IMG/VR virus record: IMGVR_UViG_3300021962_009794
Direction: 5' to 3' (one strand)
Origin: a virus
Lineage: Duplodnaviria > Heunggongvirae > Uroviricota > Caudoviricetes
DNA: 64,000 nt
Part shown: positions 28,883-51,250 of the stretch, piece by piece
Position numbering within the stretch: position 1 is the first letter of the stretch
Layout of the letters: the number at the start of each line of letters is the position of its first letter
Position numbers and translations under genes: made by a program
The notes under the pieces: generated by a model
The model's database searches: none
What the model saw: only the letters and a program-made list of their open reading frames with translations
What the model was told of the DNA's origin: nothing

Positions 28883-29668
28883 ATGGGAGGCATAAAAACT
28901 TTTTTTAAACCAAGTGAAGCTATTAAATGGTCTAAGGAGGAACTATTCCATCATGGCTACGTTGTTAAAACAGAAAGATGGCAGGGTATAGAATCCCCTG
29001 ATGATATGTGGGAAACGATGAATCATTCTTTCCAGTTTTTTATGCCCCACACTATAGAAGACCTAGTAGCCGAGATCGTACCAAATCTTCCTTGGGCAGA
29101 TGAGCATTTTGAGGAGAGGGTTGGCGGACAACCCTTAAATCCACCGCCTTCCCATGTTAGATGGCCTTTTGCTCAGAAGAACAACGCTCAGTTTGGTGGA
29201 CACGATAAGTTCTCTCATACTTACCCAGAAAGGATCTGGCCGAGATATGCTTCGTCAGAGCCCAATACTGTATTATCAGGAATCAGATATGAATATGGCG
29301 ATTTTGGGGATGTTCTAGATCTTATGGAAAGGGAACCGTTCACCAGACAAGCTTTTTTACCAATCTGGTTTCCCGAGGATACGGGAACCGTTCACAGGGA
29401 ACGAGTACCTTGCACTTTGGGATATCAATTTATCAGGAGGGGTAACCATATGCACATGACTTACTACATAAGGTCTTGTGATTACATTAGACACTTCAGA
29501 GATGACATCTATATGGCTTGCAGAAAACTTATGTGGCTTCTAGATAACCTAAAACAAAGGGATCCGGAAAGGTGGTCCGATGTTACCCCCGGGTATTTTG
29601 TAATGCACATAACTTCGTTGCATTGCTTCAATAGCGAAAAAGGCATATTAAAGCAATCCAATATGTAA
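28883..29668 (+). CDS. thymidylate-synthase-family paralog, probable dCMP hydroxymethylase/modifier
   Basis: RQAFLPIW, catalytic VPCT, RSCDYIRHFRDDIY with Asp at the position of E. coli TS Asn177, final SLH. Confidence 0.75.
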   Translation: MGGIKTFFKPSEAIKWSKEELFHHGYVVKTERWQGIESPDDMWETMNHSFQFFMPHTIEDLVAEIVPNLPWADEHFEERVGGQPLNPPPSHVRWPFAQKNNAQFGGHDKFSHTYPERIWPRYASSEPNTVLSGIRYEYGDFGDVLDLMEREPFTRQAFLPIWFPEDTGTVHRERVPCTLGYQFIRRGNHMHMTYYIRSCDYIRHFRDDIYMACRKLMWLLDNLKQRDPERWSDVTPGYFVMHITSLHCFNSEKGILKQSNM

Positions 29669-29687
29669 AAATAACCAACCAACAACA

Positions 29688-29867
29688 ATGACTAATGAAG
29701 AATTACAAGAAAAAGAAAATCACGAGAATCTAAAAAATCTAATTATACAGATCGTTAGAGAAACCCCAAACGATATGCACTTAGGTACAAAGATCCGTTT
29801 TTTCGCCGAATCATTGAAAAATGATGTAATTTTAAGTCCAGAGCAACTAGAAAGAAAAACAATCTAA
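29688..29867 (+). CDS. 59-aa hypothetical protein (not in ORF track)
   Basis: MTNEELQEKENHENLKNLIIQIVRETPNDMHLGTKIRFF...; fills the gap exactly. Confidence 0.65.
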   Translation: MTNEELQEKENHENLKNLIIQIVRETPNDMHLGTKIRFFAESLKNDVILSPEQLERKTI

Positions 29868-29868
29868 T

Positions 29869-30153
29869 ATGGAGAGCAAAGAAGTCAAAAAATCAGAATT
29901 AATACCATTTAAGGCGCCAAGCCCAGAGATGCTCAAGTACTACGAATCTCTCTATGAAAGAAATCAAACTAAATGGATTAGGAGGTCCTCACTAGAGGTT
30001 GAACACCTAGGAGCTGAATTTGAATTTGAGGGAAAGAACCTTAAACTCATGGGGACAATTGATCCTGTTTTAATGTTAGTTAAGGACTCTGATGATAAGT
30101 ACTATAGAATGAACTGTAACGCTATATCCGAGTTAGTTATAGGAAAAAGATAA
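29869..30153 (+). CDS. hypothetical protein
   Basis: 94-aa ORF. Confidence 0.6.
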   Translation: MESKEVKKSELIPFKAPSPEMLKYYESLYERNQTKWIRRSSLEVEHLGAEFEFEGKNLKLMGTIDPVLMLVKDSDDKYYRMNCNAISELVIGKR

Positions 30154-30163
30154 ACCAACCAAG

Positions 30164-30388
30164 TTGCTAGAGTTCTACGTAAAATCACAGGATCCAAAAT
30201 CTCATATAGAAGCTTGTTCCCTCATAAACTACTTCCATTGCGAGATCCTCACAGACAGAATCTGTGAGAGGGACGAGCCTTTTTATGGTGTATTTTACAT
30301 CAGAGCCACCGAAGAAGCGTTTGAGGTTTTCACTGAATTTTCTGACGGAATAACCCTAGAATACCCCCCAGGAAAAACTCTAAGATAA
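30164..30388 (+). CDS. hypothetical protein
   Basis: 74-aa ORF with TTG start. Confidence 0.45.
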   Translation: MLEFYVKSQDPKSHIEACSLINYFHCEILTDRICERDEPFYGVFYIRATEEAFEVFTEFSDGITLEYPPGKTLR

Positions 30389-30472
30389 ATCCAGAATCCT
30401 TTGGATATCCAAATTCACCCGGATATATAAGCAGTTATCTTTTGGAAATTGGGCAAAATTAACCAAAAGACA

Positions 30473-30859
30473 ATGGAAGAAAAAGACATAACAAGCACGT
30501 TTTTGATGAAACAGATTTTGGATGAACTGAATCATCTTAAGTCCAACATGCCTAACGGTGAGTTAAAGCATCTGCAGACTAGCCTGGAGGATCTAAAAAA
30601 GGACCAAAGATCGATGAAGGATGACATATCGGATATGAAGAAAAAACTCTTAGATCCAGAGTCTGGTGTTATCGTTAAAGTTAACGAAAACACAAAATTC
30701 AGATTGGCGGAGGAAAATAGATACGAGGATTACATGAAGGTTAACATCGACGTGGATTCTTTGAAGAAATGGCAGAGTGGGGTTAATAAAGCACTTTGGA
30801 TAATTTTTGGAGCCATATTAGCTATTGCTTTAAAAGTTATTTTTGGAGTAGCTCCTTAA
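30473..30859 (+). CDS. coiled-coil protein with C-terminal transmembrane helix (XhlA/holin-like)
   Basis: Heptad region then ALWIIFGAILAIALKVIFG; GATATATA at 30422-30429. Confidence 0.6.
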   Translation: MEEKDITSTFLMKQILDELNHLKSNMPNGELKHLQTSLEDLKKDQRSMKDDISDMKKKLLDPESGVIVKVNENTKFRLAEENRYEDYMKVNIDVDSLKKWQSGVNKALWIIFGAILAIALKVIFGVAP

Positions 30860-30881
30860 TATAAATCTGCATACACTGAAG

Positions 30882-30914
30882 ACCTCATGTTAATATATAG
30901 CATGAGGTTTTTTT
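30882..30914 (+). terminator. intrinsic terminator whose loop contains AATATATA
   Basis: ACCTCATG-TTAATATATAG-CATGAGGT followed by T-tract. Confidence 0.7.
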
Positions 30915-31178
30915 ATGGACCCAAGAAACCTAGTTATGATTTTATGCTACAAATCCAAAATAGGAAATAAAAAAGATCACCACCTTGTGAAGGAGAATGA
31001 GAAGGACATATATAATGACAACATCCTAGTTTATTCATCGATAGTTAGAGAAAAAATTAAAGATAAAGGAATAATACTAGAGTGCATAAAAATGCTTGAA
31101 TATTTTGAGGACTACGAAAAATGTGAGCACCTTCTCAGAATAATAAACGAAATAGATAATTCAAAAACATCTCAATAA
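30915..31178 (+). CDS. hypothetical protein with UVR-like motif (EYFEDYEKCEHL)
   Basis: 87-aa ORF. Confidence 0.65.
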   Translation: MDPRNLVMILCYKSKIGNKKDHHLVKENEKDIYNDNILVYSSIVREKIKDKGIILECIKMLEYFEDYEKCEHLLRIINEIDNSKTSQ

Positions 31179-31179
31179 A

Positions 31180-31458
31180 TTGGAAAAGAAAATAGATAGA
31201 AGGGTATTTGAGAATGCCATAGACACTATGAAGAAGTATGGTGTGAATAGCATATTGTTATCCAAGATCTATCCTAAGAGAGAAGTGATTAAAAAATCAC
31301 TACTTACCTACTATGAATCAACGGAGGAGTTCGAGAAGTGTAAATACATACAGGACTTTTTTGATGAGCTTGAAAGCGAAGCAAAAGAGTCTAAAATATA
31401 CGAAGATATAGTTGGCGCAACTGGTGAAATGTTCTCAGATAAAGCCTATAATTTTTAA
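31180..31458 (+). CDS. hypothetical protein with UVR-like motif (YYESTEEFEKCKYI)
   Basis: 92-aa ORF with TTG start. Confidence 0.65.
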   Translation: MEKKIDRRVFENAIDTMKKYGVNSILLSKIYPKREVIKKSLLTYYESTEEFEKCKYIQDFFDELESEAKESKIYEDIVGATGEMFSDKAYNF

Positions 31459-31539
31459 AACCCAATTATTCCGATTATATAAATTGAAACCTTTATTATA
31501 ATAGGGGATATAACATCGGAATAACCTTAACACTTGCTA

Positions 31540-33096: not shown

Positions 33097-33097
33097 T

Positions 33098-33676
33098 ATG
33101 TTAGACACATCAAAGTATGAATTTATTGCAGGAGTAGACGAGGTGGGAAGAGGTTGTTTGAGCGGACCCGTTGTTGCAGCAGTAGTTATTCTCCCTAAGG
33201 GTTTCTCAGATTCGAGAATCAAAGATAGCAAAGCTATAAAGAGTCTTAAGAAAAGAGAGGAAGTAGAAGCATTAATAAAGGAAAATGCTATAGCATGGGG
33301 AATAGGCGCAGCATCTCCTCAGGAGATAGATCAGATTAATATTTTGCAGGCAACTTTTTTAGCGATGAAAAGAGCTATAGATTCTTGTAAGATTGAACCT
33401 GATTTTCTCTATGTTGATGGCGATAAATTTCCGGGACATAAAAACATACCTTATGAATGCGTGATAAAGGGAGATTCTAAAGTTCCTTGCATTTCTGCAG
33501 CATCAATACTAGCTAAAGTTCATAGAGACAGATTGATGAAATCAATAAGCCAAGAATTCTCTCACTATCTATGGGAGAAGAATGTTGGATATGGAACTCC
33601 AGATCATATCTCAGCAATAAGAGAAAGAGGAATAACCAAACATCACAGAAAAACTTTTTGCCAAAACTTTATATAA
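33098..33676 (+). CDS. rnhB: ribonuclease HII
   Basis: GVDEVGRG, DSK, YVDG, KGDS...ISAASILAKV.RD, GYGT. ATG start at 33098. Confidence 0.95.
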   Translation: MLDTSKYEFIAGVDEVGRGCLSGPVVAAVVILPKGFSDSRIKDSKAIKSLKKREEVEALIKENAIAWGIGAASPQEIDQINILQATFLAMKRAIDSCKIEPDFLYVDGDKFPGHKNIPYECVIKGDSKVPCISAASILAKVHRDRLMKSISQEFSHYLWEKNVGYGTPDHISAIRERGITKHHRKTFCQNFI

Positions 33677-33677
33677 A

Positions 33678-33962
33678 ATGGAAAATAATGATTCTTTAAT
33701 GAAAGGGACTCCTGCTAAGATAGCAGATCCTAACGAACGATTCGAAGATGCAGAGTGGGTTTTTCAATTCGATGACGAAGAACCGATAGTATTTGCCTGG
33801 AGCGACAGCTCAGGAGAACCCGGGGATGTCACGATCACATTAAAACCTAACAAATCTAGTAGAATAACTTTCACCAGCATAAATGGACTGAAAGTTCTAA
33901 GCCTTTACTCCAGACCTATTACCGAGGAGACTAAAAAAATGAGAGCAGGTCAACTAAAATAA
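33678..33962 (+). CDS. hypothetical protein
   Basis: 94-aa ORF. Confidence 0.6.
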   Translation: MENNDSLMKGTPAKIADPNERFEDAEWVFQFDDEEPIVFAWSDSSGEPGDVTITLKPNKSSRITFTSINGLKVLSLYSRPITEETKKMRAGQLK

Positions 33963-33996
33963 AAAAGTTGTATGGTTATATACAACTAAAAAACAA

Positions 33997-34458: not shown

Positions 34459-34585
34459 TTTTACCGGTGATTATATATAAAACGTATTGAAGGGTGCCTT
34501 ACGTACTTAGTGTCCCGGGTCAGCAATGGCCTTAGAGTTGTTAGCAATAGCAGCAATGGGATTTTAAAAAAAAGAAAAAGGTAAA

Positions 34586-35407: not shown

Positions 35408-35489
35408 ATTTCGTACAAAGGCACCCATTCAATACTTTTTAAACGAAATTTTATTCTATCTTTGCAGTAGAACCTATAAACACAAAACA

Positions 35490-37424
35490 TTGAGAGTTTT
35501 TTATATTGTACCGTATTTGTCTACCGGTGGAATGCCGGAGTATCTAAAGAACAAAATAGACAAGATTAAGAATGATGCAGAGGTTTGGGTTTTTGAAAAA
35601 ACCCACGAGAAGACATATAATACAATCAGGAAGAGAATTGAATCTATTATAGGACAGGAAAGAATAGTTGTCTGGGGAGAAAAACCAGAAGACATTCTAA
35701 TAAAGTCTATAAGAGAAATGAAGCCTGATGTTATACACTTCGAGGAACCATGTGAGCAATTTCTCAGCAAGCATCTGCTTGAATTAATATTCACTGAGGA
35801 TAGGGAGTATAAGATATTTGAAACCATGCACGATTCATCTGTTTCTTCTAAGGAAAAGATATACCTTCCAGATAAGTTTATAGTTGTTAGCCCGTGGCAG
35901 GTTAATCTTCTAAGGGATCTTAATGTTCCCATAGAAGTGGTTGAACACGAGATATCACAAAAACCAACCAGAGAATATAACCAAAGCAGAGAAAAATTGG
36001 GATTAGATCCCAATAAAAAACACGTGGTTCAGATAGGTATATTTACGCCTAGAAAGAATCAAAAGGAAACAGCTGAGTTAGCAAGAATCCTACCTGAGAT
36101 TGATTTTCACTTCGTGGGTACTTTAGCAGATAACTTTAAATGGTATTGGGAGCCAATCATCTCAAATCTTCCGTCTAATTGTAAAGTGTGGGGTGAAAGA
36201 GATGATGTGGATTTATTTTATCAAGGTGCAGACCTTATTATATTTCCATCAATCCCTCTTTTTAATGACAAGGAAACTAGTCCATTAGTTATTAAGGAAG
36301 CAATATCGTGGAAATCTCCACTACTGCTAAGAAATCTCCCCGTCTATGTTGACATGTACCAGGAATCTGAACATTTAAAATTCTTTGCGAGTGATTCAAA
36401 AGACGAGATAGCAAATCAAATTAGAACTATTCTATGTTCAATACCAAACGAAAAAACAACCAATAAAAAAAACATGTTTATACACAGATTTACACCAAGC
36501 GAAAATAAGATTGATATAGTTTACATAGGTGACAATGACAATTTAGAATTCTTACACTGTGACGTCAGAATAAAAGATATCGATACCGGTGCTACCATTT
36601 ATGAATGTCCGATAGGATTTACTCTCGGAAATTCATATTGGGTGATTCCTATTCCTATCCACATTTACGATTTCCAGAACAATCCCAATTTCGGTGGATT
36701 CCGTATAGAGTATAGACAAGGTGAATCGGTTATACATACATCCGAATTAAGACTACGAAATGTCAGCAAGAAAATTTGTAGACTAGATACTAAAGATCCC
36801 ATATTCAGAAACTATGAAGAGTTCTTTACTGATAGAATATACGATCCAATGACAGATAGCATATTTAGAAAAAAGGTTGCTATTGATGTTGGAGCTAACG
36901 TTGGATTATTTACTGAATATTGTTTAGACACCGGATTCGAAAAAGTTATTTCGATAGAACCAAATCCTCTTGCAGCTAACGAATTTAGAAAAATGCACTC
37001 TGATAATCCAAATGTAACTCTTCATGAAATGGCTTTGACCGGAGATGGGGTGGACGTTAATCTTAGTGTAAATCCAGGAAACACACTTGTTTCCAGCATA
37101 TCCAAATCAATAAGCGACAACACAGTTACTGTTAAATCTGAAACTTTGGATTCGCTTATAGAAAGAGTTGGTGAGGTTGATCTACTAAAGATTGATATAG
37201 AAGGAGCAGAGTATGATCTGATAGCAAAGACTTCGGAGGAAACCCTAAAGAAAGCTTCCAACATAATTTTAGAATTCCATGACAACCCGGACGGAAAAGT
37301 TCTTGCAATTCTCAAAAAACTGGAATCTGCTGGATTTACATACCAGATGCACGACGAGTCAATAAAAAGACTTGTTGATGCTTTTGAAGATCATGGTGTA
37401 ATATTTGCTAAAAAAATTAGATAA
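35490..37424 (+). CDS. GT4 (GT-B) glycosyltransferase fused to a FkbM-family methyltransferase
   Basis: PYLSTGGMPEY, RKNQK, E..PLVIKEA; C-terminal IDVGANVGLF, SIEPNP, LLKIDIEGAE. Confidence 0.88.
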   Translation: MRVFYIVPYLSTGGMPEYLKNKIDKIKNDAEVWVFEKTHEKTYNTIRKRIESIIGQERIVVWGEKPEDILIKSIREMKPDVIHFEEPCEQFLSKHLLELIFTEDREYKIFETMHDSSVSSKEKIYLPDKFIVVSPWQVNLLRDLNVPIEVVEHEISQKPTREYNQSREKLGLDPNKKHVVQIGIFTPRKNQKETAELARILPEIDFHFVGTLADNFKWYWEPIISNLPSNCKVWGERDDVDLFYQGADLIIFPSIPLFNDKETSPLVIKEAISWKSPLLLRNLPVYVDMYQESEHLKFFASDSKDEIANQIRTILCSIPNEKTTNKKNMFIHRFTPSENKIDIVYIGDNDNLEFLHCDVRIKDIDTGATIYECPIGFTLGNSYWVIPIPIHIYDFQNNPNFGGFRIEYRQGESVIHTSELRLRNVSKKICRLDTKDPIFRNYEEFFTDRIYDPMTDSIFRKKVAIDVGANVGLFTEYCLDTGFEKVISIEPNPLAANEFRKMHSDNPNVTLHEMALTGDGVDVNLSVNPGNTLVSSISKSISDNTVTVKSETLDSLIERVGEVDLLKIDIEGAEYDLIAKTSEETLKKASNIILEFHDNPDGKVLAILKKLESAGFTYQMHDESIKRLVDAFEDHGVIFAKKIR

Positions 37425-39781
37425 TGAGAATAGCACAAATAACCCCAGGGGTAATTCCTATCCCGCCGAATGGATGGGGGGCTGTTGAAAAGATAATTTG
37501 GGAATACACTAAGGTTCTAAGAAATCTTGGTCACGAGGTTGAAATACTTTATACCGATGATGTTAGACCTGGTGAATGGGACATAGTTCACGTTCATATG
37601 GCTAATCTGGCTTTGATTCTTAAAGAAAGAGGAATACCTTATATCTTTTCACATCATGATCACCATGCGCATCATTTAGGAAAGGATTCGGAAGTTTATA
37701 AAAACAATCTCGAAGCTATGAAGGGATCTGTCCTTTCATTTGTTCATGCAAAATATTTAGTGGAGTATTTTGGATCACTTCCTCAGTTAAGATATCTTAG
37801 CCACGGTGCAAACCTTGATGACTATAAGTTTAAGGATAGGTCTAAGGATCTTCTCCAGAACGGGACAAGTTTAGTTATGATGGCAAACAACGGTCTTTTA
37901 GGAAACCCGCTGTTTGACAGAAAGGGATTTATCCCGGGTATAGAATGTGCAAGAAATTTGGATCTTCCGATAACTATAATTTGTCCAAGTAAAAACAACA
38001 AAGAATTCTTTGAGAAAAATTCATCAGCAGCAAACTATTCTAAGTTGAATATCCTATATGATGTTGACTATGAGAATACTTTAGCTGAATTGGATAAGCA
38101 TCACATCTTTATGAATTTAGGAGGAATCGAGGCAGGACATCCCAATCTAACTGTTACTGAAAGCATATCAATGGGTATTCCCGTTGTTGGATTAATGGAA
38201 TCAGATCTGGTTGGAATGAGAAGAATAGAATCTGTTGATTCGACAGAGATGATGAAGGGTGTAAAGGACGTGATCTCATCTTACCCTCAATATGTTTTAG
38301 GATGCAAAGAACAGAGGGAGCTAATTTCATGGGAAGTTATTGTTTCTAGAATGCTCATGGACTATGCTTCATTTGGCAAGATATCACAAAAGGACCTTAT
38401 CCTGAATGATTATAAATCTGTATCGAAGAAGGTCAGAAAAATAGAAGACAATGGATTTTATTGCTGGTTCAAAAGGAATCCACATTTTTACAAAGGATCA
38501 TACCCAGAGTGCGGCGGACAATCTATATTCTTTAGAGATGCAAGAACCAAAGCTGTTAAGGGATTTCTAAATAGTGGTAAAAGCAAAAGATCGTGGATAA
38601 CAATTCCTGATGTCACCCACGAATATGTTGACTGGGAGATTGTTATAAAGGACGGTGACGAAGTTCTCAAAACGATAAAGATGAATCTGGAAAATGAGCA
38701 TGTTCTTATTGAGCAGGGTAACATTAGAAGATCTGATCTCGAGGACATAGTCAAGGACTTTTTGTCCATGGCAAAGTGTATACCTTCTATATCGGAGAAC
38801 TCAAATTATCTGGCAGGTCTAAAGACTCCCCACTTTAAATACAAGGGTGGAGACGAATCAGGCTTTTATAGAGTTTTAAACACGGACCAAATAATAGATT
38901 TATTTAGTCCAAATTACGTCAAGTTACCGAATCCCCTTATAATCCTCCGGACCTCAGCTTTGGGTGACACCATATCATTTATGCCATATGCTGATGAGTA
39001 TGCTAGAAGACTGGGTATTAGATGTAATGTCGTAGCAAATTTCGGATTTCTATACACTGATTTATATCCAAATGTGAATATAATACAAATGCCGGATGAT
39101 TTAAGCGTGTATACGGACATTATATGCTGTGACTATATCTATGACTTACCTTTACAGTTAGGCTTCGCTAAACAGCTAGGATTAGCCGATATGGGCAAGT
39201 TAAGACCCCAACTTAAGGGATCAGGTAAACCTTCGCCCTTAAATAAGAGATATGTTTGCTTCTCCAGCCATAGTACAGCTCAGGCTAAGCACTGGAATAA
39301 CAATAACTCTTGGGAGAAGTTATGCGATATGCTGACTAAGAAGGGGCTAACCCCCGTTTGCATAGACAGATACTATAGCTTTGGTATAGAAGGAAACTGG
39401 AATGAGATACCCAACAACTGTCTAAATAAGACTGGAATGGAGCTAGCAGACATGATGCACTGGATAGAACACTGCGAATTCTTCGTAGGTTTATCTAGCG
39501 GCCTATCCTGGGTTGCACACGCTTTGGGTAAAAAAGTGGTGGTGATATCGGGGGTAACCAAAAAAGATAATGAATTTGATGAAGATTGTATAAGACTCCA
39601 TAAGGAAGAAGTCTGCAATTCTTGCTTCAACTATCCCGAAAAATTCCCATTTAATGCAGGAGATTGGTTGTGGTGTCCCGAACACAAAGGAACTCCTAGA
39701 CAGTTCGAGTGCACAAAAAAGATATCTGCTAAGCAGGTAATGGATGCTATAGAGGCTAAAGGCTGGGACAGGATAAAGTAA
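37424..39781 (+). CDS. GT4 glycosyltransferase fused to an Aah/TibC-type (strand-loop-strand) O-heptosyltransferase
   Basis: IPPNGWGAVEKII and EAGHPNL (GT4); SALGDT, AQAKHWN, GLSSGLSWVAHALGK and CNSC...WLWCP...FECTKKIS (iron-binding Cys pattern of Aah/TibC). Confidence 0.85.
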   Translation: MRIAQITPGVIPIPPNGWGAVEKIIWEYTKVLRNLGHEVEILYTDDVRPGEWDIVHVHMANLALILKERGIPYIFSHHDHHAHHLGKDSEVYKNNLEAMKGSVLSFVHAKYLVEYFGSLPQLRYLSHGANLDDYKFKDRSKDLLQNGTSLVMMANNGLLGNPLFDRKGFIPGIECARNLDLPITIICPSKNNKEFFEKNSSAANYSKLNILYDVDYENTLAELDKHHIFMNLGGIEAGHPNLTVTESISMGIPVVGLMESDLVGMRRIESVDSTEMMKGVKDVISSYPQYVLGCKEQRELISWEVIVSRMLMDYASFGKISQKDLILNDYKSVSKKVRKIEDNGFYCWFKRNPHFYKGSYPECGGQSIFFRDARTKAVKGFLNSGKSKRSWITIPDVTHEYVDWEIVIKDGDEVLKTIKMNLENEHVLIEQGNIRRSDLEDIVKDFLSMAKCIPSISENSNYLAGLKTPHFKYKGGDESGFYRVLNTDQIIDLFSPNYVKLPNPLIILRTSALGDTISFMPYADEYARRLGIRCNVVANFGFLYTDLYPNVNIIQMPDDLSVYTDIICCDYIYDLPLQLGFAKQLGLADMGKLRPQLKGSGKPSPLNKRYVCFSSHSTAQAKHWNNNNSWEKLCDMLTKKGLTPVCIDRYYSFGIEGNWNEIPNNCLNKTGMELADMMHWIEHCEFFVGLSSGLSWVAHALGKKVVVISGVTKKDNEFDEDCIRLHKEEVCNSCFNYPEKFPFNAGDWLWCPEHKGTPRQFECTKKISAKQVMDAIEAKGWDRIK

Positions 39782-41561: not shown

Positions 41562-41570
41562 AAAATACAA

Positions 41571-42208: not shown

Positions 42209-42213
42209 CAAAA

Positions 42214-42546: not shown

Positions 42547-42557
42547 ATTTACAAAGA

Positions 42558-43295
42558 ATGTTCATAAAAAACCAAACCCCCTATTTAGGAAAGATCGAAT
42601 TAAAATTTGAAAAGTCCCCCTGGTACTCATCAGGAAGCAACAGGCTTAATAAGGTTCACTTGAATCTTGGATTCACAAAATTGGTCTCAAGGATCAAGCT
42701 AAAAAGAGATTTGAATGGACCCATTCCGGATCCTCAGAAGATCGAGTTAATCAACAAATATACAGGGGGAATAATAGGTAAACATACTTTCCATAATGAT
42801 GAACACATTTTGGAAAATTCTTTCCTAGCTCCAGACGGAACATATCTAGGTGATCTTTCCGAAGGCTGGAGATACTACAAAAACAGAATGATAGTAACAC
42901 AGAAAAAACCCCACGGGGTAGCTTTAGTAATGGAAAAAGATTTCTTCCATATGTCTCTAGATAGAAGAGGTATCGTTGAGGACTACTTTTCTGTTTTCGT
43001 CAAGGGATATTATGGTTACAGTCACAGAGGAGGAAATACTTTCAGATTAGGTGACAGATTATTTGACGAGAATTATGTCCCAGTAGAATCTGATTACAGC
43101 AAAGAAGAATGGGCTAAGTATAAAAAGAAAGCCAATGAATCTGAGATCAGAAATCGGAAAGATGGATGGCTAAAGGACGGAGATGAGTTTGAGATTGCTT
43201 CTATTATACCCTTTAATAGAAGAGGCAATATAACGATACAAACGTGGGAGCAAGCTGAACAAGCTGCGATTAATATTTCAAATTATTTGAGTTAG
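42558..43295 (+). CDS. hypothetical protein
   Basis: 245-aa ORF. Confidence 0.7.
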   Translation: MFIKNQTPYLGKIELKFEKSPWYSSGSNRLNKVHLNLGFTKLVSRIKLKRDLNGPIPDPQKIELINKYTGGIIGKHTFHNDEHILENSFLAPDGTYLGDLSEGWRYYKNRMIVTQKKPHGVALVMEKDFFHMSLDRRGIVEDYFSVFVKGYYGYSHRGGNTFRLGDRLFDENYVPVESDYSKEEWAKYKKKANESEIRNRKDGWLKDGDEFEIASIIPFNRRGNITIQTWEQAEQAAINISNYLS

Positions 43296-43322
43296 AGAAC
43301 TATAAACGTAAAACAAATAATA

Positions 43323-44324
43323 ATGGCAGATAGAAAAATTAAAGAAAAAATAATTCAAAAACTAAAACAACTGAAAGATATGGAAATTGAGATGGAAAAC
43401 GTTTACAGCACCGAGGAGCAGGAACCTTTAGACGAGTTGGAAACAGAGAAAAAAATTGATTTCGCCCAGTGGTCAGTAATGGGAGACGGCAGCTATATCG
43501 CAGCTCCTAAAGCGGAGAAAAAACTTCCCGCAGGTTTATATGAGTTTGAGTGGAACAACAGGGCCAACGAATGGTGTGTAATGAGACAAGCAATCAACAC
43601 CGATGAGCTCTATGAGCTTCCGACAACTGAGATTGGTGAGATTCTAACAGACATAAAATCTTTCTGGAAAAAATCCGAGCTATATAAATCATACAAGCTT
43701 ATGCACAAAAGAGGGATTTTACTATACGGGGATCCTGGCTGTGGTAAGTCTGGTATTTTACAGCTTTGTATGATGCACATCATCAAAGATCTATCCGGTG
43801 TTGTGATCAACATTAAAAATGAGGATTCTATTAAAGCTTATGTTGAGATGGTTCCTAAGTTGAGACAGATCGAACCAGATCGCCCATTAGTTGTTATTAT
43901 TGAAGATATTGATAGCGTTGCTGGGGATAGTAATTATTCCACTTCTGTGTTGCTTAATATACTTGATGGTATTAAGCAGATCGAAAATGTTGTTTACATA
44001 GCAACAACAAACTACCCCGAAAAATTGGAGGAGAGAATCACAAATAGGCCTTCACGTTTCGATAGAAGATACTACGTAGCTCCGCCTTCGAGAGAAGTTA
44101 GAAAGGCTTATCTTTTGAATAAGATTGGAGAAAACAAAATCGACATAGACATTGAAAAATGGTTAGACGATACAGAGGATCTTTCTATGTCACACTTAAA
44201 AGAACTTTTCATCTCTGTAGTACTGTTAGATAACAAATACGAGAATGCTATAGAGCATCTAAATGGGATGAAGAAAAAACCCAGAGGGAAAAAAGAAAAA
44301 GAACTTGGATTCGGATCACGCTAA
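43323..44324 (+). CDS. AAA+ ATPase
   Basis: Walker A GDPGCGKS, Walker B IIEDID, ATTNY...RPSRFDRR. Confidence 0.92.
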   Translation: MADRKIKEKIIQKLKQLKDMEIEMENVYSTEEQEPLDELETEKKIDFAQWSVMGDGSYIAAPKAEKKLPAGLYEFEWNNRANEWCVMRQAINTDELYELPTTEIGEILTDIKSFWKKSELYKSYKLMHKRGILLYGDPGCGKSGILQLCMMHIIKDLSGVVINIKNEDSIKAYVEMVPKLRQIEPDRPLVVIIEDIDSVAGDSNYSTSVLLNILDGIKQIENVVYIATTNYPEKLEERITNRPSRFDRRYYVAPPSREVRKAYLLNKIGENKIDIDIEKWLDDTEDLSMSHLKELFISVVLLDNKYENAIEHLNGMKKKPRGKKEKELGFGSR

Positions 44325-44341
44325 ATAATAGAATAGAGGTA

Positions 44342-44759: not shown

Positions 44760-45947
44760 ATGAACAACATAGACAAACAATACCAGGAGTTACTTCGAGA
44801 TATCTTGGATAACGGTATAGAGAAAAAAGACAGAACTGGTACGGGTACCATTTCAGTATTTGGTAGACAAATCCGTCATAAAATGAGTGAAGGATTTCCC
44901 TTACTTACAACCAAGAAGATGGCTTGGAAGACTATGGTGACCGAGTTATTATGGTTCTTACGTGGTGATACTAATATCAAGTACCTACTCGATAATAACT
45001 GTCACATCTGGAGTGGTGATGCTATCAAGAATTACGAAAAGCACAATGGCGTAATTGATTGGGGACCTTTTACAACAAAGGAAGAAGCTTTTGTTGAGTC
45101 AATGAAGGATGAAGGGTTTGCTAAACAGTGGGGTGAGCTAGGTCCGATATATGGTAAACAATGGAGAAGTTGGACTAAATATCGCTTCCATGGGACAGTT
45201 AGAGATAACGGTGGTTATGATATATCAGCAATAAATGCACCAATTGATCAAATCCAAAACCTAATCAACGACCTTAAAACAAATCCCGACTCAAGACGAT
45301 TGATGGTTAATGCTTGGAATGTAGGTGAATTAGACCAAATGGTACTTCCACCTTGTCATTATGGATTTCAAGTTTATACAAGAGAGTTAAGTTTGGAAGA
45401 GAGGAGAAAATTAGCAAATCACGATTCAGAATTTATCTCACCAATCACAGTAGAATCTTGGGATAGAGCTAATATACCAACCAGAGCAATCTCTTTAATG
45501 TGGAATCAACGTTCAGTAGATACATTCTTAGGTTTACCATTTAACATTGCCTCTTATGGTTTGTTACTTGAAATCATTGCCAAGACGGTTAACATGGTTC
45601 CTGACGAGCTAATTGGTAACTTGGGTGATGTTCACTTATATTCAAATCACATTGAACAAGCGAAAGAACAGATTGGCAGAGAGATGACTTGGGAAGAACA
45701 GGTACAGTGGGTTATGCGAAACACTGATGTCGAGATGGAGAATCTATACATTGTAGAAGAAATTGCAAAGGACACAACGCCAAAGCACACCAGACAGCCT
45801 TATCCGTTACCTAGGTTAAAACTCAACCCTATATTCTTAGCTAATTTGGAGCACAAAGGATTTGACGAGGCAGTTAACGGTCAGGTTAATTTCGAATTAG
45901 AAAATTACCAATCACATCCCGCAATCAAAGCTCCTTTATCAAATTAA
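44760..45947 (+). CDS. thyA: thymidylate synthase (canonical, Asn177 type) with in-frame insertions
   Basis: DRTGTGT, LGPIYGKQWR, SRRLMVNAWN, LPPCH, QRSVDTFLGLPFNIASY, HLYSNH. Confidence 0.97.
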   Translation: MNNIDKQYQELLRDILDNGIEKKDRTGTGTISVFGRQIRHKMSEGFPLLTTKKMAWKTMVTELLWFLRGDTNIKYLLDNNCHIWSGDAIKNYEKHNGVIDWGPFTTKEEAFVESMKDEGFAKQWGELGPIYGKQWRSWTKYRFHGTVRDNGGYDISAINAPIDQIQNLINDLKTNPDSRRLMVNAWNVGELDQMVLPPCHYGFQVYTRELSLEERRKLANHDSEFISPITVESWDRANIPTRAISLMWNQRSVDTFLGLPFNIASYGLLLEIIAKTVNMVPDELIGNLGDVHLYSNHIEQAKEQIGREMTWEEQVQWVMRNTDVEMENLYIVEEIAKDTTPKHTRQPYPLPRLKLNPIFLANLEHKGFDEAVNGQVNFELENYQSHPAIKAPLSN

Positions 45948-45949
45948 CC

Positions 45950-46177
45950 ATGGAATCTAAAAATAGAACAACTCTCCAGGATCTAATAGAATCAGTTAAG
46001 GAAATTGAATCTAGAGGAATAACTTTAACCATGAAAGGTGTTGTATCTATGTTGGAAAATAGCCTACCCAAGGAGAAGAAAAACATAAGGGATGCCTATG
46101 ATAAAGGTGAATTTAACCAAGGTTGTAATGGAGATTCAGAGGAGTATTACAATAAAGAATACGGAGAATTAAAATGA
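45950..46177 (+). CDS. hypothetical protein
   Basis: 75-aa ORF. Confidence 0.6.
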   Translation: MESKNRTTLQDLIESVKEIESRGITLTMKGVVSMLENSLPKEKKNIRDAYDKGEFNQGCNGDSEEYYNKEYGELK

Positions 46178-46548
46178 AAATAGCAGTTATTGCACACGAC
46201 GGAAAAAAGGCTGATATGGTTGCCTTTGTAATGAAGAGACTTGACTTCTTCAAGAAGGTTGATATAGTAGCAACAGGCACAACGGGTAAACACATCACCC
46301 ATGCTGGATTGGAAGTTAATTGCTTAAAATCTGGACCTATGGGAGGTGACGCTCAAATAGCATCAATGGTTTCTGATGGAGAAATAGCTGCCGTGGTATT
46401 CTTTGTTGATCCACTAGACGTACATCCGCATCAGGTCGATGTGAGCATGTTGCTTAGAATCTGCAATGTTTACAACACCCCTTTAGCCACAAACTATTCA
46501 ACTGCATCATTGATGATAGATGGATTAAAATACAGAGATAAAGAATAA
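46174..46548 (+). CDS. mgsA: methylglyoxal synthase
   Basis: IAHDGKK, ATGTTG, SGPMGGDAQI, FFVDP...PHQVDV..LLRIC, PLATN. Confidence 0.92.
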   Translation: MKIAVIAHDGKKADMVAFVMKRLDFFKKVDIVATGTTGKHITHAGLEVNCLKSGPMGGDAQIASMVSDGEIAAVVFFVDPLDVHPHQVDVSMLLRICNVYNTPLATNYSTASLMIDGLKYRDKE

Positions 46549-46551
46549 AGA

Positions 46552-46983
46552 ATGGAATTATTAAACACGCACCCAATCAAAAAATCTGATTTGGGATTTC
46601 ACGGAAACCTATTTGGTGGAAAATTATTAGCATGGATTGATGCTGCAGCAGCAGGGTATTCTATGCAATTATGCGACACTCCCCGAATGGTAACTGTACT
46701 CATAGATAAATGCTATTTTGAAAAACCCGCAAAGGAGGGTCAGCTGGTTAAGGTCTACGGGATACCAACAGATATCGGTCACACTTCTATAACTCTATAC
46801 ATCGAGGCAAGGGCTCACAACGTTTACACTGGCAGACAGATAGTGGTGCTCAAAACACACATTAAGTTTGTTCATATAGATGAAGAGGGCAATCCAATTC
46901 CAATTGGCGAGAAGGGGAGAAATTCAGTTGCACGGATGATAGAGGGAAACAAAGATCTTATAGAATCAATAAAAACAAAGTGA
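46552..46983 (+). CDS. hot-dog-fold acyl-CoA thioesterase (YciA-like)
   Basis: HGNLFGGKLLAWIDAAA...F.KP...G.TS. Confidence 0.88.
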   Translation: MELLNTHPIKKSDLGFHGNLFGGKLLAWIDAAAAGYSMQLCDTPRMVTVLIDKCYFEKPAKEGQLVKVYGIPTDIGHTSITLYIEARAHNVYTGRQIVVLKTHIKFVHIDEEGNPIPIGEKGRNSVARMIEGNKDLIESIKTK

Positions 46984-46984
46984 T

Positions 46985-47383
46985 ATGCTCGGAGTAATAG
47001 CTGGTAATTTTGACGTGATCCATCCAGGATACATTTATATGTTTAGCGAATGTAAAGCTAACTGCAAAGAATTTGTTGTTTTGCTGCACGAGGATCCCAC
47101 AATAGAAAGACCGGAAAAGTGCAAACCGGTTTTATCAGTGGAAGAGAGGACTGATATACTTTTATCACTTAAGCAAATAGATAATGTAATTACATATAGG
47201 AGTGAATCAGATCTTTATGAAATTCTAAAAAAGATGAATCCCGATGTTAGATTTCTAGGAGATGATTATATAGGGAAATCTTTTACTGGTGATGATCTAG
47301 AAATATCAATTCACTATCTGAACAGAGATCACGGATGGTCAACAACAAAATACAAAACTCTAATAGCTGAAAGCTTAAAATAA
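46985..47383 (+). CDS. cytidylyltransferase-like nucleotidyltransferase (TagD/RfaE-C family)
   Basis: GNFDVIHPGY (HxGH variant), KP..S.EER, GDDY, WSTT. Confidence 0.85.
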   Translation: MLGVIAGNFDVIHPGYIYMFSECKANCKEFVVLLHEDPTIERPEKCKPVLSVEERTDILLSLKQIDNVITYRSESDLYEILKKMNPDVRFLGDDYIGKSFTGDDLEISIHYLNRDHGWSTTKYKTLIAESLK

Positions 47384-47748
47384 TGAACAAAGAACAAAAA
47401 GCACAATCGATAATCGGGCCACTTGGAGCTATTATCTCACATTCAAAAAGCGGTTACCGAGAAAGATATCCGGAAAACCTTTCAATTTTCAATGCAAACA
47501 TCTGCACAGCCAACGAGAAGATATGGTGGGGTGATTTGGATGTTACTCTAAGTCAAACATTCATAGCAGATCTGGCATTTATTCTGAATGAAGATCTTTA
47601 CGTTCTATATGAGATGGACGGAAGATTCGAAAATGAGGAGAAACCTAAGGTAGATAAATATGCAGTTAAATTCTTTTATGATGGAGGTATTGAGTTATCT
47701 AAATCTTTAACTGAATACTATGACAACAATCTAAGGATAAAAAAATGA
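47383..47748 (+). CDS. hypothetical protein
   Basis: 121-aa ORF. Confidence 0.7.
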   Translation: MNKEQKAQSIIGPLGAIISHSKSGYRERYPENLSIFNANICTANEKIWWGDLDVTLSQTFIADLAFILNEDLYVLYEMDGRFENEEKPKVDKYAVKFFYDGGIELSKSLTEYYDNNLRIKK

Positions 47749-48446
47749 AAGCAGAAAAAGTAAAAGCCCTATTTATATCGGACGTCCACTTGGGTAGCAA
47801 GGGATCTAATTCCGGCAAACTTTTAGAAACACTAAAAATGTATGAGCCAGAGGAACTTTTTATAGTTGGGGATTTTATTGACGGATGGCTTCTTAAAAAA
47901 AGACATTACTGGACACAGCAAAACACAAACCTAATTAGAAAAATTCTTTCTTACAGTAAAAACGGAACAGCGGTTACCTACATTACAGGAAACCATGACG
48001 AATTTTTAAGACATTACGTTCCTTTATTTCTCGGAGATAACATAAAGGTTGTTGATGAGGCAGAGTTCAATGGATATTACATAACCCACGGGGATCTTTA
48101 TGACGGGGTAGTTAAATTAAAATGGTTGGGTGTTTTGGGCTCAGTAGGTTACGAGATAGCCATAAGTGCTGACCGATTTATGAAAAGGCTTGGGTACAAA
48201 AGATCACTGAGTAAGTATTTAAAAAATAAAGTCAAAGGAGCGGTAAAATTCATAACTTCTTTTGAAAAGCAATTAGTTTTTCAAGCTAAGAAAAGAGGAT
48301 GCTCCGGAGTTATTTGCGGTCACATACACACTGTCGCAAATACGAACATAGACGGAATCCACTATCTTAATTGCGGAGACTGGATAGAAAATAATAGCTA
48401 TATACTTTATGATAAAGGATCGTTTGAGCATCGTTATTCCATGTAA
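47745..48446 (+). CDS. UDP-2,3-diacylglucosamine diphosphatase-like metallophosphoesterase (LpxH family)
   Basis: SDVHLG, VGDFIDGW, GNHDE, HGDLYD, CGHIH, NCGDWIE. Confidence 0.85.
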   Translation: MKAEKVKALFISDVHLGSKGSNSGKLLETLKMYEPEELFIVGDFIDGWLLKKRHYWTQQNTNLIRKILSYSKNGTAVTYITGNHDEFLRHYVPLFLGDNIKVVDEAEFNGYYITHGDLYDGVVKLKWLGVLGSVGYEIAISADRFMKRLGYKRSLSKYLKNKVKGAVKFITSFEKQLVFQAKKRGCSGVICGHIHTVANTNIDGIHYLNCGDWIENNSYILYDKGSFEHRYSM

Positions 48447-49134
48447 GAATGAGGAGAATTATATAAGGAGAACTCTGGACGAGATCTCCCTTCAGTTTGG
48501 TATAAGAGGAACAAGTGTTATAATTGCAGATGGAGGTTCCACCGATTCCACCCTTTCAAAAATAAAAGACTTCATAAATTCAGAGGACAATAATCTGGAC
48601 GTGGAAATTATAAAGGGCGGGAGTGTCTCAGTGGGTAGAAACCGAGGGGCATCCTTGGTTAAAACTCCTCTTATATTATTTCTAGATGCAGACATAACGT
48701 TTACTGATTTACTTGCCATACAAAATGCTCTAGATTATCTCGATAAAAATCCTAATATAGAACTTATAGGAACTACCCCCGAATATATGGGGGAATTTGA
48801 TTTAGCAGCAAGTCTTATATTTTTCTTCAATAACATAACAGCTAAAATAATGTCCATTGCGGATCCTTTTGCAGTTGGAGCATTCATGTTGATATCAAGA
48901 AAAAAATTCGTGGAGATAGGAGGGTTTGATGAGGAAGTACATCAGTCAGAGGATTGGCTATTGAGCAGGCAGATAAAATCAAAAAACTTTAAACTCATTC
49001 CGAATCTAATAACCCAGGATAATCGGAGATTTAAAAAATTCGGTTACATTAAGATGCTCAAAATGGTTATCAAGAACTGGTTTAACAGAGGGAACAAAAA
49101 ACACTTTCATAAAGATCAAAAATACTGGGAATGA
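48409..49134 (+). CDS. GT2 glycosyltransferase
   Basis: SIVIPCKNEE, ADGGSTD, RNRGA, FLDAD, SEDW. Confidence 0.9.
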   Translation: MIKDRLSIVIPCKNEENYIRRTLDEISLQFGIRGTSVIIADGGSTDSTLSKIKDFINSEDNNLDVEIIKGGSVSVGRNRGASLVKTPLILFLDADITFTDLLAIQNALDYLDKNPNIELIGTTPEYMGEFDLAASLIFFFNNITAKIMSIADPFAVGAFMLISRKKFVEIGGFDEEVHQSEDWLLSRQIKSKNFKLIPNLITQDNRRFKKFGYIKMLKMVIKNWFNRGNKKHFHKDQKYWE

Positions 49135-49556
49135 TAATAAACATACAACTAGAAGACTTAGAACACGAATTTATACCATACTTCAAATTCAGATCCATAA
49201 CCGCTCTATCACTGGACTATGCTACAAATGCTATCCACGGGTATCTTGGCGACAAGGAGGTAATAGTCTTCAGGTTTAAGGATTATGGATTTATCCACGA
49301 TAACAGATTCAATACATGCTCACTCTCCTACGGTGAAGCAGGGATAACCATAGAAGTAAGAAAAACTATGGATAGACCGCTATCTCAGGAGGATAGAATA
49401 AAATGGTTCTTTGCAAATTATTACGAGACTGGTATGGAACTATCGAGTTTGCTAATAAGCATGAAGGACACCGATTTAGATAACCTCTTATGGTATGATC
49501 AAAAAATAGATATACCTAAGAGCTCATTAGAAGCCGCTAGACGCACGCAAAATTAA
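49131..49556 (+). CDS. hypothetical protein
   Basis: 141-aa ORF. Confidence 0.6.
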   Translation: MIINIQLEDLEHEFIPYFKFRSITALSLDYATNAIHGYLGDKEVIVFRFKDYGFIHDNRFNTCSLSYGEAGITIEVRKTMDRPLSQEDRIKWFFANYYETGMELSSLLISMKDTDLDNLLWYDQKIDIPKSSLEAARRTQN

Positions 49557-49561
49557 ATACA

Positions 49562-51250
49562 ATGGTAAGCTTAGGATTTTCAGTAGGACACGATAAAGGC
49601 TGTGTAATCATAGTAGACGGAGAGGTTAAAGTGGGTATATCTCAGGAGAGGCTCACGAGAGTGAAACATGACGGTGGATATAGCACGGTTTTACCGGTAG
49701 AAGCTATAGATTACTGTCTACAATATCTCGGTTTGGAGTATTCCGACGTCGACAGATGGACTTTTAATACAGTAGAGGATGACGATGTTGTAGCGGATTC
49801 TTTCGAGAAGACCTTTGGCATCGATAGAAGTAGACTCCACTTTATACCCCACCACCTAGCTCACGCATACTCGACCTTTTACAGCTCTGGATTCTCAGAA
49901 GCTGCGGTTGTTGTTGCTGACGCAATGGGGAGTGTTTTGAAAAGAGGTAGTAATGCTCTAAAATGGTTTGGGCGGGAATGGCCAGGTACTGAAGATTACG
50001 AATATGCAGAGGGTATAACTATTTACAAGTTCGCTCCTGGTGAGGACAAAGAGGTTTATAAAAAATGGATAAAGTACCCAATGATGCTTGACGGAAATTC
50101 GGAAACATCCATTGGTGAACAATACGGAAAAGGATCACTCCAACTTGTGTATGATCCTAAGACTAATTCTTGGCCGGCAGGAAAACTTATGGGACTAGCT
50201 TCATATGCTGATCAGGAATGGGTTAAGCAAATTCCTTCTCACACGACTTTAAGCGATAGTGAAATATTTATACCTTCAGTTAAGATAATGCCAGAGGTAG
50301 ATTATAGGTCAGATTTCTATTCTAAAGCAAATGTTGCTGGTCTATATCAAAGAGACCAGGAGCAAAATTCAATTCATCTGGTTGGGATGGCTAAGAGATT
50401 AACAGGGTCAGAGAATGTTTGTGTTGCGGGGGGATCTTTTCTAAACTGCAACACAAACGAGATGATAATAAAATCTGGTTTGTATAAAGATCAGTACTTC
50501 GTTCCCTGTTCAGACGACAGCGGTATACCATTAGGATGTGCTTGGTGGGGTTACGTTAAAAGCGAGAGAGCACCTAAAGGAAAGTACCTTAATCCTTACA
50601 TGGGCAGGTCATATTCAGATCTCCAGATAAAAGATGCTATCGATAAAGCTTCAGCTGAATTTGAATTTGGTGATTTGGTTAATGTTGACCTGTACCGGGA
50701 TAAATCTGAGCAGATCAGAAACGTAGCTTCAATCATTAATCAAAATAAAGTTATCGGTCTATTCCAGGGAGGATCTGAAATTGGTCCGAGAGCTTTGGGT
50801 AACAGATCGATAATAGCTTCACCGAAATGTGTATGGATGAAGGATCACATAAATCACGATATTAAATTAAGAGAGTGGTATAGACCATTCGCACCATCAG
50901 TTCTTTTTGATAGGCAAAAAGATGTTTTCGATCTGGATGTTTATTCTCCTTACATGATGGTGACTGCGAGAGTCAAAGAAGAGTGGAAATCTAGAATACC
51001 TTCTGTGGTTCATATAGATGGAACTTCTAGATACCAATCGGTAACGAAAGAATCGAATCCATATTACCATAGGCTGATTTCCGAATTTGAAAGTCTGAGT
51101 GGAATACCTCTTGTACTAAATACTAGTTTTAATGGTCCGGACGAGCCAATAGTTGAATCTCCTTATCACGCTATCAGAACGTTCTGGAAAAGAAATCTCC
51201 ATGCACTCTGCATAGGTAACTATGTGATTACACGAAAGCCAAATCAATAA
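49562..51250 (+). CDS. CmcH/NodU-family O-carbamoyltransferase
   Basis: GHD, ERLTRVKHD, HHLAHA, GKLMGLASY, AGGSFLNC, EIGPRALGNRS, REWYRPFAPS, HIDGTSRYQ, LNTSFN. Confidence 0.95.
   Translation: MVSLGFSVGHDKGCVIIVDGEVKVGISQERLTRVKHDGGYSTVLPVEAIDYCLQYLGLEYSDVDRWTFNTVEDDDVVADSFEKTFGIDRSRLHFIPHHLAHAYSTFYSSGFSEAAVVVADAMGSVLKRGSNALKWFGREWPGTEDYEYAEGITIYKFAPGEDKEVYKKWIKYPMMLDGNSETSIGEQYGKGSLQLVYDPKTNSWPAGKLMGLASYADQEWVKQIPSHTTLSDSEIFIPSVKIMPEVDYRSDFYSKANVAGLYQRDQEQNSIHLVGMAKRLTGSENVCVAGGSFLNCNTNEMIIKSGLYKDQYFVPCSDDSGIPLGCAWWGYVKSERAPKGKYLNPYMGRSYSDLQIKDAIDKASAEFEFGDLVNVDLYRDKSEQIRNVASIINQNKVIGLFQGGSEIGPRALGNRSIIASPKCVWMKDHINHDIKLREWYRPFAPSVLFDRQKDVFDLDVYSPYMMVTARVKEEWKSRIPSVVHIDGTSRYQSVTKESNPYYHRLISEFESLSGIPLVLNTSFNGPDEPIVESPYHAIRTFWKRNLHALCIGNYVITRKPNQ

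Follow-up and report, generated by a model that had tools for sequence, protein, structure and literature searches.

The question raised by this locus is whether a tailed phage builds its DNA with a cytosine that is modified at C5. The window, a 64,000-nucleotide stretch of the IMG/VR virus record IMGVR_UViG_3300021962_009794, comprises bases 6112–70111 of a 134-kb viral record that was rated about 48% complete by CheckV. Two genes of the thymidylate synthase (TS) family are located in it, namely a canonical ThyA gene and a divergent TS-like gene whose product is referred to as P0001. An earlier note on this DNA had read the TS-like gene as part of a cytosine hypermodification pathway, and all of the genes that it named could be recovered where it had placed them. 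Judged from its sequence and its structural model, P0001 appears to be a cytosine-type TS-fold protein outside every characterised product class. A core pathway for C5 modification of cytosine, working before replication in the manner of phage T4, is considered moderately probable.

Fold and catalytic residues of the TS-like protein

The two TS-family genes of the window are as follows.

28883–29668, forward strand: divergent cytosine-type TS-fold enzyme (P0001), predicted to modify deoxycytidine monophosphate (dCMP) at C5; Cys177, Arg174, His112, Tyr114, Arg197-Ser198-x-Asp200, Asp208
44760–45947, forward strand: canonical Asn177-type ThyA; Pfam match at 1.2e-91; PPCH and RSVDTFLGLPFN (Asn)

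P0001 is a protein of 261 amino acids (aa) that reads ...RVPCTLGY...YIRSCDYIRHFRDDIYM, and both RVPCTLGY and YIRSCDYIRHFRDD are present in the open reading frame (ORF) 28883–29668. The Pfam profile Thymidylat_synt (PF00303) scored 19.3 bits on it, under the cut-off of 24.3, and phrog_160 'thymidylate synthase' matched it at 1.3e-24. The AlphaFold2 model of P0001 (pLDDT 90, pTM 0.90) was matched by Foldseek to TS, dCMP hydroxymethylase (dCH) and MilA structures at a probability of 1.00. The top PDB matches were cytosine-specific enzymes, with MilA first, the HY126 dCMP hydroxylase (AfhB) second and T4 dCH also leading. The TS alpha/beta fold, the catalytic Cys177 and Arg197-Ser198-Cys-Asp200 place the protein in the thymidylate synthase superfamily. 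Asp208 lies eight residues past the RSCD motif, which is the position of Asn177 in the E. coli enzyme and of Asp179 in the T4 enzyme. BLASTP alignment against T4 gp42 likewise placed Cys177 on Cys148, RSCD on RSND, and FRDD on FRND.

The P0001 family, which is virus-borne, numbered over 4000 proteins at E <1e-5 and 140 clusters at 50% identity with E <1e-30. Its members are commonly annotated as 'thymidylate synthase' and mostly fall below the Pfam cut-off. Among 58 diverse members, Cys177, Arg174, Arg197, Asp200, Asp208, Trp94, Tyr114, and His247 were invariant, while His112 and Ser198 were kept in at least 90%. As Asp208 is invariant across these members, it is no chance substitution, and the claim that the phage has a second TS-family gene with Asp in place of Asn177 is upheld by this invariance together with the TS-fold model. 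The residues for covalent catalysis and one-carbon transfer were also kept, namely the Cys, Tyr114 (=Tyr94/Tyr96), Trp94 (=Trp80/Trp82), and the equivalents of Arg166-Ser167, Asp169, and His207/His216. Profile comparison by hhalign of the family against T4 gp42 yielded a 94% probability (E 9.5e-8, 189 columns), against 10% for the window's own ThyA. By these comparisons the family is much nearer to T4 dCH than to the ThyA encoded beside it.

It is established that the Asn177/Asp switch sets the specificity for deoxyuridine monophosphate (dUMP) versus dCMP (PMC8670742, PMC13326640, PMC6400193). The dUMP-specific ThyA signature (Asn177, His147, Leu143) was not found in P0001, which has Asp208, Thr178, and Arg174 at these positions. 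Hydroxymethylases need an acidic residue (Asp or Glu) at −3 from the Cys, where it activates the substrate water (PMC6400193, PMC13326640), and a Ser or Thr at −2 from the catalytic Tyr, as in Ser94-x-Tyr96 of T4 dCH (PMC6400193); the D145N mutant of T4 dCH is inactive (PMC6400193). The cytosine-selecting Asp179 of T4 dCH has its aligned, family-invariant counterpart in Asp208. The position three residues before the Cys is occupied by the invariant Arg174, and the residues leading to the Tyr are His112-Thr113-Tyr114. Membership of P0001 in the T4 dCH group was rejected on this replacement of the signature Asp and Ser by Arg174 and His112.

Two further product classes were compared in the same way. 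The 5-hydroxy-dCMP synthases of the RB69 gp48 type are marked by D169N (PMC13326640), and the corresponding Asp200 of P0001 is invariant; 5-hydroxycytosine (5hC) was therefore rejected as the product. TS and the dCMP methylases carry a bulky hydrophobic residue at position 143 (PMC13326640). P0001 has the Asp208 of an Xp12-type dCMP methyltransferase, but Arg174 stands at the hydrophobic position in place of Leu143, and this class was rejected as well. The TS genes of PaMx74-like phages and of Pamexvirus matched P0001 at E values of about 0.3–2 only.

The C5 product cannot be predicted because the positions that discriminate between methyl and hydroxymethyl transfer hold an Arg/His pair absent from the characterised enzymes. 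The earlier note had named 5-hydroxymethylcytosine (5hmC) or 5hC as the product; neither is retained, as the hydroxymethylase signature (Asp at −3, Ser-x-Tyr) and the 5-hydroxy signature (D169N) are both absent. A folate cofactor is favoured over flavin, since the equivalent of Asp169 (Asp200) is retained together with Trp94 and Tyr114. With Arg174 and His112 in the active site, the exocyclic-methylene intermediate may be attacked by neither water nor hydride but by another nucleophile, such as an anion bound to the Arg, which would leave an undescribed C5 substituent on deoxycytidine. Such chemistry is conceivable because the Arg/His pair replaces both the water-activating Asp/Ser pair of the hydroxymethylases and the Leu of the methylases, yet we regard it as a speculative and fairly improbable outcome.

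Nucleotide-pathway genes and their association with the TS-like gene

Further genes of nucleotide metabolism and repair were distributed along the same strand.

1281–1670, forward strand: MBD4-type HhH-GPD glycosylase (E 1e-14 to MBD4 glycosylase domains)
5140–5619, forward strand: T4 gp56 homolog of the all-alpha dCTPase/dUTPase family (41% identity over 127 aa, E 7e-29)
5637–9117, forward strand: class Ia ribonucleotide reductase (RNR), small and large subunits, a deoxynucleotide supply block between the gp56-like gene and the kinase gene
9096–9758 (start at 9096 or 9132), forward strand: nucleoside monophosphate (NMP) kinase of the adenylate-kinase/UMP-CMP-kinase family, directly after the RNR genes
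28177–28836, forward strand: MPPED2-like metallophosphoesterase, just upstream of the TS-like gene (MPPED2 E 6e-39)

The gp56-like dCTPase/dUTPase, the NMP kinase, the canonical Asn-type ThyA and the MBD4-like glycosylase, on all of which the hypermodification proposal had drawn, were thus present. The gp56-like protein is a true T4 gp56 homolog, with homology extending across the all-alpha NTP-pyrophosphatase core, where dCTPase and dUTPase are not separable from sequence. The kinase is the sole candidate for phosphorylating a modified dCMP. The MBD4-type glycosylase possibly repairs the T:G or hydroxymethyluracil:G (hmU:G) mismatches that arise from deaminated 5-substituted cytosine. An Fpg/Nei glycosylase gene lies immediately 5' of the MBD4-type gene (451–1670 region) and a UvdE endonuclease gene is located at 14227–15141; these belong to base-excision and UV repair. 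The ThyA protein is 395 aa long; about 40 residues are inserted behind the region of the catalytic Cys, and the C-terminus is extended by about 80. Its relatives are likewise long (359–407 aa).

In the proposed pathway, the gp56-like pyrophosphatase would convert dCTP (and dUTP) to the monophosphate, and the TS-fold enzyme would attack dCMP, not dUMP, by means of Cys177 and Asp208 and transfer a one-carbon unit from methylene-tetrahydrofolate to C5. The candidate kinase at 9096 and a host nucleoside diphosphate kinase would then raise the product to the triphosphate, which the phage polymerase would incorporate, and the separate Asn-type ThyA would supply deoxythymidine monophosphate (dTMP).

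The association of these genes was evaluated in jumbo phage genomes taken as complete, that is, viral records rated by CheckV as at least 90% complete, of which nine carried the TS-like gene and two (317 kb) did not. The gp56-like gene and the kinase gene were each found in eight of the nine genomes with the TS-like gene, the MBD4-like glycosylase gene in seven, and none of the three in either genome without it. The record of the close relative G001, 348.6 kb in length, was rated 100% complete; its TS-like gene and its carbamoyltransferase (CT) gene are each 91% identical to those of the window, and it also encodes a dCMP deaminase. No dCMP deaminase, Tmk, trimeric Dut, or T4 beta-glucosyltransferase homolog was found in the 134-kb fragment, which is about 48% complete.

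Members of the P0001 family were also carried by cultured siphophages of unrelated hosts, namely Yersinia phage P744, Serratia phage Serbin, Mycobacterium phage Muddy, and Streptomyces phage Zuko. The gene order is fixed in all four: thymidylate kinase, gp56-family dUTPase/MazG, a gene without assigned function, the TS-like gene, cytidine/dCMP deaminase, and DNA polymerase I. The deaminase slot is filled by a deaminase gene in three of them and by an unannotated 180-aa gene in Muddy. In Zuko and Muddy the pyrophosphatase is a homolog of the window's gp56-like protein, and the order is the layout of the 5-methylcytosine (5mC) module of Xp12/PaMx74 (bioRxiv 10.1101/2024.12.05.627091). The gene that always stands 5' of the family member in the small siphophages encodes 270–350 aa (L006:5229–6062, L007:5183–5992, L009:4117–5010, L010:3877–4938); it is annotated as 'pyrimidine hmase synthase' in P744 and could represent either a partner or a second step of modification. 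No TS profile similarity could be detected for it, and no homolog was found in the jumbo phages. A weak BLAST match of the P744 copy (E 0.03) was rejected after the profile comparison with the Zuko copy did not confirm it.

The deaminases bear on another explanation, namely that the TS-like enzyme acts in nucleotide metabolism and leaves the virion DNA unchanged, either by making 5-methyl-dCMP that is deaminated to dTMP or by acting, as MilA does, on a ribonucleotide or other non-DNA substrate. The family member is adjacent to a dCMP/cytidine deaminase gene in three of the four small phages, with the slot in Muddy unannotated, and G001 has a deaminase gene. The routing of 5-methyldeoxycytidine to thymidine is documented in Xp12-type modules (bioRxiv 10.1101/2024.12.05.627091); in Xp12-type phages, however, it accompanies full replacement of cytosine by 5mC, and a second dTMP route would be redundant in a phage that already has a canonical ThyA. 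MilA, the top structural match, is a CMP hydroxymethylase for an antibiotic, but no nucleoside-antibiotic genes were found near the TS-like gene. The literature reports no modification for the cultured carriers, whereas the co-variation of the TS-like gene with a pyrophosphatase of the gp56 type is consistent with a depleted dCTP pool. A role confined to nucleotide metabolism is accordingly considered unlikely.

Several points weigh against the cytosine-modification pathway itself. As P0001 fails every class signature, it may do something else, and searches of the literature found no chemical data for any member of its family, cultured carriers such as Muddy included. The gp56-like enzyme could simply stand in for Dut and serve dUTP alone, because the TS-like jumbo genomes that were checked (G001, G053, and G058) have no ordinary trimeric Dut, which is present in one of the two complete genomes without the TS-like gene. 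The kinase at 9096 is most similar to adenylate kinases, no Thymidylate_kin family gene was found in G000, G001, G053, G054, or G058, and no homolog of the T4 gp1-type kinase was found. The jumbo co-occurrence counts come mostly from one lineage and hence are not independent. In addition, the pathway genes are dispersed over 40 kb and the CT gene lies 20 kb from the TS-like gene, so that the caveat of the earlier note that the genes are not clustered holds. The core of its proposal, consisting of the gp56-like gene, the cytosine-type TS, the separate Asn-type ThyA and their co-variation, was retained; 5hmC or 5hC as the product, and tailoring by the CT and the glycosyltransferases (GTs), were not.

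Around the TS-like gene, neighbours were counted over 80 TS-like loci. The metallophosphoesterase gene was directly upstream in 20 of them; the MPPED2-like protein of the window (28177–28836) could be a counter-defence enzyme that degrades nucleotide signals instead of a pathway partner. In 18 of the 80 loci an IMPDH/GMP-reductase-like gene, absent from the window, took the directly upstream position (L144:6895–7959, L002:15303–16361).

Carbamoyltransferase and glycosyltransferase genes

The proposed tailoring of the modified base involves the following genes.

46174–51250, forward strand: operon of methylglyoxal synthase, 4HBT thioesterase, cytidylyltransferase-like protein, a protein without assigned function, metallophosphoesterase, GT2, a second such protein, and CT
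49562–51250, forward strand: NodU/CmcH/TobZ-type CT (P0003), last gene of the operon; Pfam Carbam_trans_N 5.7e-25, Carbam_trans_C 1.1e-63
35490–39781, forward strand: GT4-FkbM and GT/GT9-like fusion genes, whose distribution does not track the TS-like gene
19313–20239, forward strand: distant GT-A-fold protein between topoisomerase II and the gene for the C-terminal part of the family-B DNA polymerase (PolB), found in the closest relatives only

A complete NodU/CmcH carbamoyltransferase had been predicted at 49562, and P0003 indeed has both domains at full length. It could be aligned to TobZ over its full length (E 1.8e-68), which places it among the NodU/CmcH/TobZ O-carbamoyltransferases, and it shares this two-domain architecture with TobZ and with the 5hmC carbamoyltransferase of MetaGPA (Yang et al. 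2021, eLife). Three TobZ positions were singled out by the MetaGPA study, namely 408, 421, and 423 (numbered 414, 427, and 429 in the PDB chain). There, P0003 keeps Gly421 and Arg423 and has Leu for Trp408; the text of the paper does not name the states of the DNA clade. The Trp-to-Leu change does not track the presence of the TS-like gene, as the CT of the relative G018 keeps the Trp. Within the operon, the methylglyoxal synthase (46174–46548) passed the two NCBIfam equivalog thresholds (162 and 152 bits), and a methylglyoxal synthase gene lies directly upstream of the metallophosphoesterase/TS-like pair in 16 of the 80 relatives' loci. The cytidylyltransferase-like protein of 132 aa gave weak matches to RfaE domain II and TagD.

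Clear GTs of the window were found at 10447 (GT2), 35490 (GT4-FkbM), 37424 (GT9-like), and 48409 (GT2). The two genes at 19313 and 25506 that had been put forward as GT-like fared less well. The protein of 19313 has no Pfam match, and its model resembled a GT-A fold distantly (Foldseek E 5e-4, TM about 0.4) and did not resemble the known DNA glycosyltransferases; 25506 matched DUF6734 only (Pfam). The GT4-FkbM and GT/GT9 pair was kept in the nearest relatives, with related versions in genomes without the TS-like gene, and was missing from two genomes with it. Next to 19313, the family-B DNA polymerase is split over two genes 15 kb apart (3638–5038 and 20240–21388), and in the relative L002 this C-terminal piece likewise lies beside topoisomerase II.

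The most elaborate reading of the window holds that the 49562 protein adds a carbamoyl group to a cytosine already modified to 5hmC or 5hC, and/or that the GTs of the window glycosylate it, in a new combined hypermodification. Precedents for each step exist. A phage CT that turns 5hmC into 5-carbamoyloxymethylcytosine has been described (PMC8670742), and the known DNA glycosyltransferases resemble ordinary GT4 or GT-A enzymes, those of RB69, DLP3, and RL38J1 looking like GT4 enzymes (PMC13326640; bioRxiv 10.1101/2023.12.21.572611). Heptosylation of 5hmC involves a cytidylyltransferase, a HAD enzyme and a GT (bioRxiv 10.1101/2023.12.21.572611), and the window has cytidylyltransferase-like, HAD, and GT9-like genes. 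No T4 beta-glucosyltransferase homolog was found in the 134-kb fragment, however, and a hydroxyl acceptor is not assured when P0001 lacks both the 5hmC and the 5-hydroxycytosine signatures. The genes for the CT, for the GT2, and for the GT-A-like protein of 19313 are accessories confined to this sub-lineage, which is how T-even tailoring genes behave, and such genes differ among related phages; but the GT4/GT9 pair occurs independently of the TS-like gene, and the claim that cytosine is glycosylated by these GTs was therefore not sustained.

The link of the CT to the TS-like gene was evaluated over 80 fetched IMG/VR loci that encode relatives at 45–91% identity to the CT of the window. In the locus of G018 the two genes are 3 kb apart; in no other of the 80 was a TS-like gene found less than 10 kb from the CT. 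The ThyA neighbours in these loci numbered seven, all Asn-type with Leu143, and the P0001 family was present in two of 50 parent records. The usual neighbours of the CT were a second CT paralog, an HNH endonuclease, and ClpP. Most relatives (L012–L090, for example L052:11668–13260) are in tandem with a divergent paralog of about 530 aa within a conserved HNH/ClpP block; the window has a single copy. A 'thymidylate synthase' beside the CT of cyanophage Sf-FP1 was set aside as irrelevant, the gene being ThyX.

Complete genomes demonstrated the same separation. The CT clade occurs in the two 317-kb genomes, each with a single, Asn-type TS gene and neither the TS-like gene nor gp56, and the CT is lacking in eight of the nine complete carriers of the TS-like gene. 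In MetaGPA, pairing of CT with TS was seen only on modified-cytosine contigs, and GT-flanked CTs sat on ordinary-cytosine contigs (PMC8670742). Unlike the MetaGPA enzyme, the CT of the window is not beside an Asp-type TS but is flanked by the GT2 and cytidylyltransferase-like genes, and its clade is found without a cytosine-type TS. The co-localisation with an Asp177 TS, PRA-PH pyrophosphatase, or dCMP deaminase that would mark a 5hmC carbamoyltransferase was not observed, and a link by synteny or co-occurrence was rejected over the CT loci and complete genomes. Action of the CT on modified cytosine is thus not borne out, and carbamoylation or glycosylation of the base is left unsupported and very improbable; the combined hypermodification is equally remote. 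The CT operon is probably outside the cytosine pathway. Its genes read as sugar or small-molecule chemistry, and the CT/GT2/cytidylyltransferase operon together with the GT4/GT9 genes most likely forms a module of its own for glycans or small molecules.

Comparison with known systems and significance

A host in Flavobacteriia is plausible, because the RNR is closest to versions from Tenacibaculum and Cellulophaga phages and the only near-identical DNA among cultured phages is a ThyA segment of Flavobacterium phages. Near-identical DNA was present in estuary, river, and freshwater metagenomes of many studies, as assembled contigs, which cannot reveal base modification. A phage tmRNA gene was found at 26459–26900, with the tag peptide EVEYAYAA according to ARAGORN. 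The 245-aa protein of 42558–43295 matched the Pfam family of Tad6, an inhibitor of Type I Thoeris (E 6e-17), and is followed by an AAA ATPase at 43323–44324.

The T4 pathway consists of gp42 dCH, the gp56 dCTPase/dUTPase, the gp1 deoxynucleoside monophosphate kinase, td, and cd. P0001 resembles T4 dCH in its TS fold, in the Cys followed by Thr, in the FR(N/D)D motif, whose Asp selects cytosine, and in the equivalents of Trp82 and Tyr96, and T4 dCH was its best profile match. A true gp56 homolog and a separate ThyA are likewise present in the window, with a dCMP deaminase in the complete relative. Unlike T4 dCH, to which it is about 20% identical, P0001 has an invariant Arg for Asp145 and a His for Ser94. 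The window also differs from T4 in its dispersed genes and in having neither a gp1-type kinase nor an alpha- or beta-glucosyltransferase homolog.

The Xp12/PaMx74 5mC module comprises a MazG/PRA-PH pyrophosphatase, an Asp177 TS homolog, a 5mC-selective deaminase, and PolA. In the small siphophages the P0001-family members stand where this TS homolog does, within the same order of genes, and they likewise have Asp at position 177. The Xp12/PaMx74 enzymes, unlike P0001, are ordinary PF00303 proteins, and P0001 has Arg where a methyl product would call for the hydrophobic Leu143; the extra gene before the TS-like gene is a further difference, seen in the small phages and not in the jumbo phages. 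With the flavin-dependent 5-hydroxy-dCMP synthases of RB69, DLP3, and HY126, P0001 shares the cytosine-type TS fold, AfhB of HY126 being its second-best structural match, but it lacks D169N and has Arg, not Glu, at position 143.

The system therefore resembles the pre-replicative cytosine replacement of T4 and Xp12, with a key enzyme that, by its residues, lies outside the dCH, dCMP-methylase, and 5-hydroxy-dCMP-synthase groups as they are now defined. What is new is the explicit failure of the Ser94/Asp145 signature, with His and Arg instead; the co-variation of the TS-like gene with those for the gp56-like protein, the kinase, and the MBD4-like glycosylase; the conserved place that the P0001 family holds in the small-phage modules; and the negative test of a CT and GT link to the TS-like gene.

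Base replacement before replication is a major means by which phages evade CRISPR and restriction enzymes, and epigenetic sequencing draws enzymes from it. Screens that are based on PF00303 will mostly miss the P0001 family because most of its members score under the Pfam cut-off. A phage CT should not be read as 5hmC-modifying unless it is paired with an Asp-type TS. The cultured carriers, including the therapeutic-grade mycobacteriophage Muddy, make the question of the product testable by liquid chromatography–mass spectrometry. If the undescribed C5 chemistry suggested by Arg174 and His112 is true, a novel C5 base could occur in many jumbo phages and in the cultured phages Muddy, Serbin, and Zuko.

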